From the NCBI RefSeq assembly GCF_988242995.1, contig NZ_OZ547043.1: a stretch of 64,000 bases of DNA; one strand, written 5' to 3'. Under the pieces are notes generated by a model. It searched no databases, was not told where the DNA came from, and saw only the letters and a list, made by a program, of their open reading frames with translations. How positions within the stretch are numbered: position 1 is the stretch's first letter; the number at the start of each line of letters is the position of its first letter. The position numbers and the translations under genes were made by a program. Shown one piece after another: positions 27,701 to 31,727 of the stretch.

Positions 27701-27733
27701 AAAAAGGTCCGATGGGCATCGGACCTTTTATTT
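27701..27733. terminator. Bidirectional rho-independent terminator between ygbN and the convergent decarboxylase operon
   Basis: AAAAAGGTCCGATG-GG-CATCGGACCTTTTATTT: 10-bp perfect stem flanked by A-run and T-run. Confidence 0.7.
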
Positions 27734-27968
27734 AGCGCTTACCTTCCGCCAGCAGCGGCGGGATGCTCGGCACCATCGGCGCGTCATCAATATCTTTCTG
27801 CGTCATGCGGAACGCTTCGGGATAATGTTCGCGGCTAGTGCGGCGTAGCGGTTCGGTATCGCGCCAGGTATAAAGGCAATGCTGGCACTGGTAGACCGTC
27901 CAGACATCTTTCACCGGCGATTTCGCCATCACTTCAATCTGTTCATCGGCACAACGTGGACAAATCAT
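27732..27968 (-). CDS. ecdD: Small subunit of UbiD-type aromatic acid decarboxylase (BsdD/EcdD-like)
   Basis: 78-aa ORF with CPRC...CQHC zinc-ribbon-like motif; downstream of UbiD homolog. Confidence 0.7.
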   Translation of the reverse strand: MICPRCADEQIEVMAKSPVKDVWTVYQCQHCLYTWRDTEPLRRTSREHYPEAFRMTQKDIDDAPMVPSIPPLLAEGKR

Positions 27969-27978
27969 CTTGTTCTCC

Positions 27979-29406
27979 TTATTTACGTGCGGCCAGCATA
28001 GCAGTCAGTTTTTCAGCCCAGGCTTTGGTTTCCGGTAAATCCACCACCGGCTGGCTGTAGTGACCACGGTTGTCCGGGGCGACAGGCGTGGTGGCGTCGA
28101 TAATCAGCTTGTCGGTGATCCCCGCCGGGCTTGAGCCAGGGTCGAGTTCCAGCACGGACATATTTGGCAACTGCACCAGGTCGCCTGCCGGGTTCACTTT
28201 CGAGGAGAGCGCCCACATCACCTGCGGCAGGTTGAACGGATCAACGTCTTCATCGACCATAATCACCATCTTCACGTAGCCCAGACCGTGCGGCGTGGTC
28301 ATTGCACGCAGGCCCACCGCGCGGGCAAAGCCGCCGTAGCGTTTTTTGGTGGAGATAATCGCCAACAGGCCGTGGGTGTACATGGCGTTTACCGCCTGCA
28401 CTTCCGGGAACTCGGCTTTCAGTTGCTGATACAGCGGCACGCAGGTGGCAGGCCCCATCAGGTAGTCGATTTCGGTCCACGGCATACCAAGATAGAGCGA
28501 TTCGAAAATCGGTTTGGTACGGTAAGAGACTTTATCGATACGCACCACGGTCATGTTACGCCCGCCGGAGTAGTGACCGGTAAACTCACCGAACGGCCCT
28601 TCAATCTCACGTTTACGACTTTCGATAACCCCTTCGAGGATCACTTCCGAGCCCCACGGCACATCAAAACCGGTCAGCGGGGCGGTGGCGATCGGGTACG
28701 GGCTTTCGCGCAGCGCGCCCGCCATTTCGTACTCAGACTGATCGTATTTCAGCGGCGTGGCGCCCATCAGGATGATGATCGGATCGTTACCTAGGGTGAT
28801 GGCAATCGGCAGATCTTCACCGCGTTCTTCCGCTTTATGCAGATGCAGAGCGATATCGTGCATCGGCACCGGTTGCAGGCCGAGCTTACGTTTGCCCTTC
28901 ACTTCCATACGATAGATACCGACGTTCTGCTTGCCGAAGTTATCCGGGTCGAGCGGATCGCGGGAAACCACGCACGCTTTGTCGAGATAGAAACCGCCAT
29001 CGCCATCGTTTAAACGAAACAGCGGCAGGATATCGAACAGGTTGATCTCGTCGCCATCGACGGTGTTCTGCGCCCAGGCTGGATTGGCGCGGCGCTCCGG
29101 GGCAATCGGGAAGTTATCCCAGCGGCGGATAAACTCATCAATCTGCTTTTTGACCGGGGTGTTTGGCGGCAGGCCGAGGGAAATCGCGTGGTTCTGCCAG
29201 GAACCGATGGCATTCATCGCCACACGGGCATCGGTAAAGCCGCGAATATTGTCAAACCACAGCGCGGGCGCGCCGTCGCCGATACGCCCGGTGGCGTTAG
29301 CTGCTGCTGCCAGATCCGGTTCCGCGTTCACCTCTTCGCTGATTTTCAGTAACTGGCCGTGGTCATCAAGCGCCTGTAAAAAGCTGCGTAAATCATCAAA
29401 TGCCAT
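27979..29406 (-). CDS. ecdC: UbiD-family (prFMN-dependent) aromatic acid decarboxylase
   Basis: 475-aa ORF with UbiD-like length and translation; operon context with UbiX homolog. Confidence 0.8.
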   Translation of the reverse strand: MAFDDLRSFLQALDDHGQLLKISEEVNAEPDLAAAANATGRIGDGAPALWFDNIRGFTDARVAMNAIGSWQNHAISLGLPPNTPVKKQIDEFIRRWDNFPIAPERRANPAWAQNTVDGDEINLFDILPLFRLNDGDGGFYLDKACVVSRDPLDPDNFGKQNVGIYRMEVKGKRKLGLQPVPMHDIALHLHKAEERGEDLPIAITLGNDPIIILMGATPLKYDQSEYEMAGALRESPYPIATAPLTGFDVPWGSEVILEGVIESRKREIEGPFGEFTGHYSGGRNMTVVRIDKVSYRTKPIFESLYLGMPWTEIDYLMGPATCVPLYQQLKAEFPEVQAVNAMYTHGLLAIISTKKRYGGFARAVGLRAMTTPHGLGYVKMVIMVDEDVDPFNLPQVMWALSSKVNPAGDLVQLPNMSVLELDPGSSPAGITDKLIIDATTPVAPDNRGHYSQPVVDLPETKAWAEKLTAMLAARK

Positions 29407-29999
29407 TATTCATTCTCCTGAGAAAAATTCCGGACCTGCGGCAATCCTTGCCAGCGCCTGGCGTGGGGATGTTCGAGGCCAAATTGATCCAGCACGCGGG
29501 CTACCACGTGGTGGACAATGTCATCTACCGTTTCGGGATGGTTATAAAAGGCAGGCATCGGCGGCACCATCGCCACGCCCATGCGTGAAAGTGCGAGCAT
29601 ATTTTCGAGATGGATGGTGCTAAGCGGCATTTCACGCGGCACCAGCACTAGTTTGCGGCCTTCTTTGAGCACGACGTCCGCCGCGCGCCCTACCAGGCCA
29701 TCGGCGTAACCGACACGGATACCGGCGAGCGTTTTCATACTGCACGGAATAACGATCATGCCGTCGGTACGAAAGGAACCTGAGGAGATGGTCGCCGCCT
29801 GATCCGCCGGGTTATGACTGAAGTCTGCGAGGGCAGCAACATCGCGAGCGCTGTAAGGCGTTTCCAGTTCAATGGTGGTTTTCGCCCACTTCGACATCAC
29901 CAGATGAGTCTCGACATTCGGCATCTCCCGCAGCGCTTGCAGTAATGCCACCCCAAGAGGCGCACCGGTAGCCCCTGTCATCCCGACGATCAGTCTCAT
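29406..29999 (-). CDS. ecdB: UbiX/Pad1-family flavin prenyltransferase
   Basis: 197-aa ORF MRLIVGMTGATGAPLGVALLQAL... typical of UbiX/Pad1. Confidence 0.82.
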   Translation of the reverse strand: MRLIVGMTGATGAPLGVALLQALREMPNVETHLVMSKWAKTTIELETPYSARDVAALADFSHNPADQAATISSGSFRTDGMIVIPCSMKTLAGIRVGYADGLVGRAADVVLKEGRKLVLVPREMPLSTIHLENMLALSRMGVAMVPPMPAFYNHPETVDDIVHHVVARVLDQFGLEHPHARRWQGLPQVRNFSQENE

Positions 30000-30016
30000 T
30001 GTTTATTCTCTTAATT

Positions 30017-30030
30017 GTTCGTATACGAAC
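30017..30030. promoter_or_regulatory. Perfect 14-bp palindrome GTTCGTATACGAAC in divergent promoter region; candidate MarR-family operator
   Basis: Read directly; lies between ecdB start (29999) and the MarR-like gene start. Confidence 0.4.
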
Positions 30031-30107
30031 GTTATTATTAAAATACGCCTCTGTTTTCATCGCGGCAAGCACTGAAAAGTAACAACATCTTCTTCGTCAC
30101 TGAAAAA

Positions 30108-30122
30108 CCGCTATGATAGCGG
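30108..30122. promoter_or_regulatory. Inverted repeat CCGCTAT-G-ATAGCGG; second candidate operator
   Basis: 7-bp perfect arms around one central base, about 25 bp upstream of the MarR-like start. Confidence 0.3.
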
Positions 30123-30145
30123 CAGATAGTTTGCCCGGAGTTTAC

Positions 30146-30553
30146 ATGGCGTTACGAAATAAAGCGTTCCATCAGTTACGACAGCTTTTTCAGCAGCACA
30201 CGGCTCGCTGGCAGCACGAGTTACCTGACCTCACCAAACCACAGTACGCGGTGATGCGCGCCATTGCTGATAAGCCTGGTATCGAACAGGTGGCACTGAT
30301 AGAAGCAGCAGTCAGCACCAAAGCAACGCTGGCAGAAATGTTGGCAAGAATGGAAAATCGTGGCTTAGTCAGACGTGAACATGACGCCGCTGACAAGCGG
30401 CGTCGCTTTGTCTGGCTGACTGCCGAAGGAGAAAAGGTACTTGCTGCGGCGATCCCCATTGGTGACAGTGTGGATGAGGAATTTTTGGGGCGTTTGAGTG
30501 CAGAAGAGAAGGAGCTGTTTATGCAGTTGGTGCGCAAGATGATGAGCAAATAG
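30146..30553 (+). CDS. MarR/SlyA-family transcriptional regulator
   Basis: ORF 30113..30553; start taken at ATG 30146 behind GGAG; winged-helix region; divergent from decarboxylase operon. Confidence 0.75.
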   Translation: MALRNKAFHQLRQLFQQHTARWQHELPDLTKPQYAVMRAIADKPGIEQVALIEAAVSTKATLAEMLARMENRGLVRREHDAADKRRRFVWLTAEGEKVLAAAIPIGDSVDEEFLGRLSAEEKELFMQLVRKMMSK

Positions 30554-30620
30554 GATGCTGATTGCCGGGTAGGACGCTGACGAGTCTTATCCAGGCGACA
30601 AAACACACCGACTTCCCAAA

Positions 30621-30657
30621 CAAAAGAAAAAGGCCAGCCTCGCTTGAGACTGGCCTT
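30621..30657 (-). terminator. rpoS rho-independent terminator
   Basis: Minus strand AAGGCCAG-loop-CTGGCCTT followed by TTTTTCTTTTGTTT, directly downstream of rpoS stop. Confidence 0.6.
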
Positions 30658-30673
30658 TCTGACAGATGCTTAC

Positions 30674-31665
30674 TTACTCGCGGAACAGCGCTTCGATATT
30701 CAGCCCCTGCGTTTGCAGGATTTCGCGCAAACGGCGCAGGCCTTCAACCTGAATCTGGCGAACACGTTCACGGGTGAGGCCAATTTCACGACCTACATCT
30801 TCCAGTGTTGCCGCTTCGTACCCCAGCAAACCGAATCGACGTGCCAGTACTTCACGCTGTTTGGCGTTCAGCTCGAACAGCCATTTGACGATGCTCTGCT
30901 TCATATCGTCATCTTGCGTGGTATCTTCCGGACCGTTCTCTTTTTCATCGGCCAGGATGTCCAGCAACGCTTTTTCGGAATCACCACCCAGCGGGGTGTC
31001 TACCGAGGTAATGCGCTCGTTAAGACGAAGCATACGGCTGACGTCATCAACTGGCTTATCCAGTTGCTCTGCGATCTCTTCCGCACTTGGTTCGTGGTCC
31101 AGTTTATGGGACAACTCGCGTGCGGTTCGCAGGTAAACGTTCAGCTCCTTTACGATGTGAATCGGCAAACGAATAGTACGGGTTTGGTTCATAATCGCCC
31201 GTTCGATCGTCTGGCGAATCCACCAGGTTGCGTATGTTGAGAAGCGGAAACCACGTTCCGGGTCAAACTTCTCTACCGCGCGGATCAGCCCCAGGTTGCC
31301 CTCTTCGATCAGGTCCAGCAACGCCAGACCACGATTGCCATAACGGCGGGCAATTTTTACCACCAGACGCAAGTTACTCTCGATCATCCGGCGGCGGGAG
31401 GCAACATCTCCACGCAGTGCGCGACGCGCAAAATAAACTTCTTCTTCGGCCGTTAACAGTGGTGAATAACAATCTCACCAAGGTAAAGCTGAGTCGCGTC
31501 CAACACACGCTGTGTGGCTCCCTGCGATAACAGTTCCTCTTCGGCCAAATCGTTATCACTGGGTTCCTCTTCTACTAAGGCCTTTTCGTCAAAAACCTCA
31601 ACTCCGTTCTCATCAAATTCCGCATCTTCATTTAAATCATGAACTTTCAGCGTATTCTGACTCAT
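30674..31665 (-). pseudogene. rpoS: RNA polymerase sigma factor RpoS (sigma-S), disrupted by a -1 frameshift
   Basis: N-terminal [17 protein letters not shown]...LYLGEI reads in ORF 31453..31701 and stops after IVIHHC; the rest ([10 protein letters not shown]...ALFRE) is ORF 30674..31387 in another frame; span is 992 nt, not a multiple of 3. Confidence 0.8.
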
Positions 31666-31727
31666 AAGGTGGCTCCTACCCGTGATCCCTTGACGGAACA
31701 TTCAAGCAAAAGCCTGGTTCCGCCGAT

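Follow-up and report, generated by a model that had tools for sequence, protein, structure and literature searches.

The window, by which we mean the whole 64-kb stretch of DNA analysed here, contains the mutS-rpoS variable region of E. coli. The genes present are, in this order, ygbL/M/N, vdcD-vdcC-vdcB, a MarR-family regulator gene (hosA), rpoS, nlpD, pcm, surE and truD. The three vdc genes are located on the minus strand: vdcD (27732..27968) for the small subunit D of a non-oxidative hydroxyarylic acid decarboxylase (NCBIfam NF041205 VdcD, 121 bits against a cutoff of 30; identical locus in RefSeq), vdcC (27979..29406) for the UbiD-family catalytic subunit C (NF041204 VdcC, 788 bits against 650; Pfam UbiD N, core and C domains) and vdcB (29406..29999), also named pad1 or ecdB, for the UbiX-family flavin prenyltransferase subunit B (NF041206 VdcB, 312 bits against 290; RefSeq). 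vdcB is the first gene of the HosA-repressed operon vdcBCD.

On the opposite strand hosA (30146..30553, plus strand; start taken from RefSeq and from the homolog alignment) encodes a MarR-family repressor sensing 4-hydroxybenzoate. Two MarR domains of Pfam score above their gathering thresholds (PF01047, 45.8 bits against 24.6; PF12802, 42.1 against 27), and in the PDB residues 1-134 match 8aga and another six structures titled "Transcriptional regulator HosA" (E = 2.5e-83), with PcaV ranking next (E = 7.6e-16). The protein is 96-98% identical to the E. coli HosA clusters and 96% identical to the main one, from which it differs in 6 of 134 residues. Its identification as the HosA orthologue is completed by the gene context, with vdcBCD immediately divergent and rpoS directly downstream of hosA. 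The preliminary description of this DNA had placed a MarR-like gene beside a divergent decarboxylase operon, and both the Pfam MarR domain and the VdcB, VdcC and VdcD scores above the NCBIfam cutoffs bear this out. Of the 5,426 complete genomes of E. coli, 2,404 carry the hosA-vdcB locus. In E. coli CD45 vdcC is marked by RefSeq as a frameshifted pseudogene, while hosA and the operator described below are intact.

The gap between the ATG of vdcB (on the complement, ending at 29999) and the ATG of hosA (30146) measures 146 bp. Identical starts for both genes are annotated by RefSeq in six E. coli genomes, that is five other strains and one strain which is 100% identical over the 901-bp query used (window 29700-30600). 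A Shine-Dalgarno sequence GGAG, conserved in the alignment, is found 5 nt before the ATG of hosA (30137..30140, plus strand), and AAGAGA, 7 nt before the ATG of vdcB (30007..30012, minus strand), is from its sequence the probable counterpart for the operon, with other genera showing GAGGTG or similar. A longer hosA reading frame of 146 amino acids, starting from an ATG at 30113, was rejected, since 30146 is the start in RefSeq and in all homologs and since most genera read TATCAT at this site, without that ATG. An Rfam scan of 29850-30300 gave nothing credible, the single hit being a 17-bit chance match to a lncRNA.

Downstream of hosA the rpoS gene is split into two open reading frames (window 30674-31701). 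By comparison with the intact allele of strain 50579417, the strain which shares the full 901-bp hosA-vdcB query with the window, one G is missing at about nucleotide 196 of rpoS, a deletion near 31470 which shifts the frame after about 65 codons. The break reflects either an rpoS-null allele of natural origin, a kind of allele frequent in E. coli, or a sequencing error in a homopolymer. The space between hosA and rpoS, which are convergent, holds on the minus strand (30627-30660) a strong hairpin of 15 pairs followed by a T-run, which is likely to be the rpoS terminator and possibly serves hosA too.

Two palindromes are present in the divergent gap, and both were confirmed from the sequence and the RefSeq starts to be at the positions given in the preliminary description. 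Palindrome 1, GTTCGTATACGAAC (30017-30030), is a perfect 14-bp dyad, and palindrome 2, CCGCTATGATAGCGG (CCGCTAT-G-ATAGCGG, 30108-30122), has 7-bp arms and a 1-bp spacer. In the window perfect palindromes with 7-bp arms are not enriched over Markov-1 simulations (4 observed against 5.3+/-2.6 for spacer 0, and 5 against 5.2+/-2.3 for spacer 1). Simulated 146-bp sequences of like composition contain one or more such palindromes (spacer 0-3) in 5% of cases and two or more in 0.9%. The sequence statistics are therefore only mildly unusual, and function is supported by position, cross-genus conservation and published experiments rather than by the statistics of palindromes.

Palindrome 1 is almost certainly the HosA operator. 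It equals the published 14-bp HosA binding site, to which HosA from E. coli UMN026 binds in EMSA and biolayer interferometry and from which it is released by 4-hydroxybenzoate (Cao et al. 2018, PMC6261655), with a KD of 4.7 uM by isothermal titration calorimetry (PMC6261655). The published probes (43 bp for EMSA and 59 bp for biolayer interferometry; PMC6261655) contain the dyad together with its flanks and match the window at 29995-30053. The flanks of DNAHosA-F0/R0, CTCATTGTTTATTCTCTTAATT and GTTATTATTAAAATACGCCTCTG, are those of the window at 29995-30016 and 30031-30053, and oligo TH of the same work carries TTAATTGTTCGTATACGAACGTTATTA. In the machine-read Table S1 of PMC6261655 the HosA site is printed as GTTTCGTATACGAAC, with 15 nt and the same letters for either strand. 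A transcription error is probable here, since a string identical on both strands and of 15 letters against the stated 14 bp is at odds with oligo TH. The control by phenolic acids expected in the preliminary description thus corresponds to HosA binding released by 4-hydroxybenzoate, and the EMSA with and without phenolic acid which it had proposed is already in the literature, with a positive result for palindrome 1. As cited in two preprints, Roy & Ranjan 2016 (Biochemistry 55:1120) reported that HosA represses the HAD operon and its own gene, with 4-hydroxybenzoate as the ligand, and the same preprints attribute to this work a palindromic HosA site downstream of the transcription start site (TSS).

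An exact match to GTTCGNNNNCGAAC occurs once in the 64-kb window, at palindrome 1. The search for further HosA boxes in the window gave only one-mismatch matches at chance frequency (5 observed against 3.0+/-1.8 expected), and elsewhere in the E. coli intergenic region there is no second match to GTTCG-N4-CGAAC with up to two mismatches. In E. coli O157:H7 (Z1835) the operator reads GTTCGCATACGAAC, with one central mismatch to the dyad. This variant is also frequent in Enterobacter and Leclercia, which suggests that change is tolerated in the central four bases.

For comparison across genera, 80 genomic loci from about 25 enterobacterial genera were retrieved from the HosA homolog alignment. 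The divergent hosA-vdcB arrangement is found in 75 of these, with gaps of 145-174 bp in nearly all. The five hosA-homolog loci without vdcB within 2.5 kb belong to Pluralibacter, Superficieibacter, Cedecea and one Rahnella, and in one further locus (L076) the hosA-vdcB gap is 599 bp, so the regulator is sometimes uncoupled from the operon. None of the intergenic regions examined lacks palindrome 1 (box 1), which is placed 15-21 bp from the ATG of vdcB in most loci and 24 or 35-36 bp from it in a few outlying genera, e.g. Rahnella. Its half-sites GTTCG/CGAAC are essentially invariant, with variation confined to the central four bases. Among 66 distinct non-Escherichia intergenic sequences, for which the mean majority-base frequency over the gap is 0.63, the outer five pairs of the dyad are complementary in 63-66.

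Promoters were called by a position-weighted sigma-70 scan together with cross-genus conservation, a built-in consensus promoter scan of the region having returned no promoter at its threshold. The best-scoring sigma-70 candidate on the minus strand has its predicted -10, TATTTT, at 30040..30045 and, at a spacing of 17 bp, its predicted -35, TTGCCG, at 30063..30068, with an invariant CAA in the alignment; the predicted TSS is near 30033. Of 79 intergenic sequences, 76 show the pattern TTGnCn-17-TAnnnT and three have a spacing of 16 or 17 bp without a TTG -35, and in 66 of the 79 the -10 (TAnnnT) ends 9-10 bp from box 1. With the TSS predicted near 30033 the operator would span about +4 to +17, just ahead of the ribosome-binding site of vdcB, a position which fits both the published statement of a site downstream of the TSS and steric repression. 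We propose that a HosA dimer sits on GTTCGTATACGAAC immediately downstream of the predicted vdcBCD promoter, where it would block RNA polymerase. 4-Hydroxybenzoate, the substrate of the decarboxylase, binds HosA and makes it leave the operator, by which vdcBCD is induced.

In 35 of 69 non-Escherichia loci there is a true second HosA box, which reads GTTCGYRYRCGATC or differs from it slightly (up to two mismatches), at 56-57 bp from box 1 (for example L045:2402-2415 for box 2 and L045:2346-2359 for box 1). Its carriers include Klebsiella, Enterobacter, Kluyvera, Leclercia, Lelliottia and Pseudocitrobacter, and it is absent from Escherichia, Citrobacter, Salmonella, Kosakonia and Rahnella. It is located shortly before the -35 of vdcBCD, on the upstream side, at an aligned window position of about 30073-30086, where E. 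coli reads TGAAAAGTAACAAC and hence has no second box. The family thus does have control regions with two operators, though neither with palindrome 2 as the second nor in this genome.

The preliminary description had proposed both palindromes as operators for autoregulation by the MarR-like protein and for control of the adjacent operon. Its first site is the published operator, and its second is not supported as one. Palindrome 2 is unlike the HosA box in its half-sites (CCGCTAT against GTTCG) and in its symmetry (an odd 15 bp against an even 14 bp), and its dyad is not conserved across genera. In the 66 non-Escherichia sequences its outer three pairs are complementary in 29, 11 and 1, against 40, 55, 62 and 65 for the inner four, and the outermost pair is polymorphic already within E. 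coli (GCGG versus GCGA). What is conserved across genera is GCTAT[G/C]ATAG, that is GCTATGATAG at 30110-30119 in the window. The arms in Escherichia are one or two base differences away from the Citrobacter form CCGCTATGATAGAGA, and the full 7-bp arms are probably an Escherichia-specific product of chance. As conservation is limited to a -10-like core, palindrome 2 should not be annotated as an operator.

This core is probably the -10 region of a hosA promoter rather than an operator. It contains TATGAT (30112..30117, plus strand) with a conserved G at -14, and the predicted TSS is near 30124. TATGAT or TATCAT is present in 72 of 79 intergenic sequences, in 71 of these at 27-31 nt before the ATG of hosA. 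Most other genera have TTAAAA-17-TATSAT (score about 10.8) fixed at 28-29 nt before this ATG, and in most non-Escherichia genera the -35 at 17 bp is TTAAAA or TTATAA, with scores of about 9-11. The Escherichia gap is without the conserved TTAAAA and has at this place only TTCTTC (in the window; 5.4) or TCCCCT, with scores of 4.7-5.4. It is also about 25 bp shorter than that of most genera (145-146 bp versus about 170 bp), a difference which maps to about 30088-30107 of the window. An exact 9-nt direct repeat, CACTGAAAA, is found in the gap at 30070-30078 and 30098-30106, 28 bp apart from start to start, and may be the trace of an indel.

A reading of palindrome 2 as a second HosA operator, which would overlap the hosA promoter and serve autoregulation, appears quite unlikely. 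In its favour, palindrome 2 overlaps the likely hosA -10, a place at which a repressor would be effective, the work known through the preprints reports autorepression by HosA, and two sites in a divergent region are frequent with MarR-family proteins, as with HosA in half of the non-Escherichia loci. Against this, half-sites and symmetry differ from those of the HosA box and the outer arms are not conserved. The genuine second box of other genera is a different element, a copy of GTTCGnnnnCGATC at 56-57 bp from box 1, and published work names a single 14-bp site.

The conserved core goes beyond a bare hexamer, with GC upstream and AG downstream, and is itself a small dyad, so a protein site may overlap the -10. 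An operator for a different regulator could consist of the core CTATSATAG in all genera or of the extended dyad in Escherichia only. The conserved block of 10-11 nt is slightly larger than a -10 hexamer needs and has dyad symmetry, and Escherichia has lost both the -35 and box 2, by which its control of hosA may have been rewired. On the other hand -10 regions ordinarily show such features as the conserved G at -14 and the discriminator bases, the seventh pair of the extended dyad varies within E. coli, palindrome 2 matched no known motif and no candidate regulator is encoded close by. Altogether we consider this operator unlikely. A specific form of rewiring, which we regard as rather improbable, would have box 2 and the ancestral -35 lost through the deletion of about 25 bp and CCGCTATGATAGCGG acting as a new operator for a second regulator or as a compensating structural element. 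If true, it would tie the expression of hosA in Escherichia to a signal other than 4-hydroxybenzoate.

The symmetry of palindrome 2 could also act in RNA, either as a weak intrinsic terminator on the minus strand (GCCGCUAUCAUAGCGGU followed by UUUU) directed against antisense read-through into the vdcBCD promoter, or as a hairpin in the 5'-UTR on the plus strand. A terminator scan flags it on the minus strand, and its minimum free energy is -9.8 kcal/mol (z = -2.6 versus shuffles). However, its stem is short, outside Escherichia both the hairpin potential and the T-run are missing, and rpoS, the upstream gene on the minus strand, is served by a strong terminator of 15 pairs at 30660-30627. A TSS near 30124 would moreover leave palindrome 2 outside the hosA mRNA. 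The terminator role on the minus strand was rejected for lack of conservation and because of this rpoS terminator, and an RNA hairpin of either kind is very improbable.

A further candidate promoter for hosA overlaps the operator itself. TTGTTC-18-TAAAAT (30015..30044, plus strand; -35 at 30015-30020 and -10 at 30039-30044) is, as judged by the scan, the best plus-strand candidate in the window with a score of 9.5. Its -35 and spacer overlap the HosA operator and its predicted TSS is at 30051. Its counterparts in other genera have variable scores, with a median of 6.4. The heptamer TAAAATA (30039-30045) is a symmetric -10 common to this candidate and to the vdcBCD promoter. It is one of two symmetric -10-like heptamers in the gap, the other being TATGATA (30112-30118), and each could in principle fire both ways. 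A single operator overlapping the plus-strand candidate would allow HosA to control both genes, and the autorepression reported for E. coli hosA would be most simply explained by this single operator, both the route and the promoter used by hosA being predictions from sequence. The arrangement resembles bidirectional promoters with a symmetric -10 (Warman et al. 2021; PMC12825309), for which 18 bp is the most common TSS spacing (PMC12825309). The predicted TSSs at 30033 and 30051 are likewise 18 bp apart, a likeness in sequence geometry only.

Taken together, control of vdcBCD by one operator and the use of the palindrome 2 core as the -10 of hosA give a joint explanation which we hold to be likely, graded at this level because its main claim rests on published experiments. 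The operator of HosA, its ligand and its target operon have been known since 2016, crystal structures of HosA exist, and the operator is already in use in biosensors for 4-hydroxybenzoate derived from parabens. The useful outcome is a cleanly annotated control region, with one operator at about +4 to +17 of the conserved predicted vdcBCD promoter. The genera with two boxes and the loss of the -35 in Escherichia could matter when HosA parts are moved between hosts in biosensor design.

The system is that of the HosA/HAD (vdcBCD/ecdBCD) regulon of pathogenic E. coli (Roy & Ranjan 2016; Cao et al. 2018, PMC6261655), with the same protein, the same position beside rpoS, the same divergent operon and the same operator with its flanks. 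There is no difference of substance, the six HosA residues differing from the main E. coli cluster being the only one. PcaV of Streptomyces coelicolor, HpaR, HucR and MarR likewise act as winged-helix dimers on a short dyad at the promoter or TSS and are released by aromatic acids, but their operator sequences and ligands differ and several of them work through two or more operators. In the hosA-vdcB gap of E. coli a single box can be recognised, whereas many other enterobacterial genera have two. In Bacillus subtilis the homologous phenolic acid decarboxylase operon bsdBCD, encoding UbiX, UbiD and small-subunit proteins, is also induced by its substrates via a divergently encoded regulator. 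This regulator, BsdA, is of the LysR type and differs from HosA in belonging to another family and in being an activator, not a MarR repressor.
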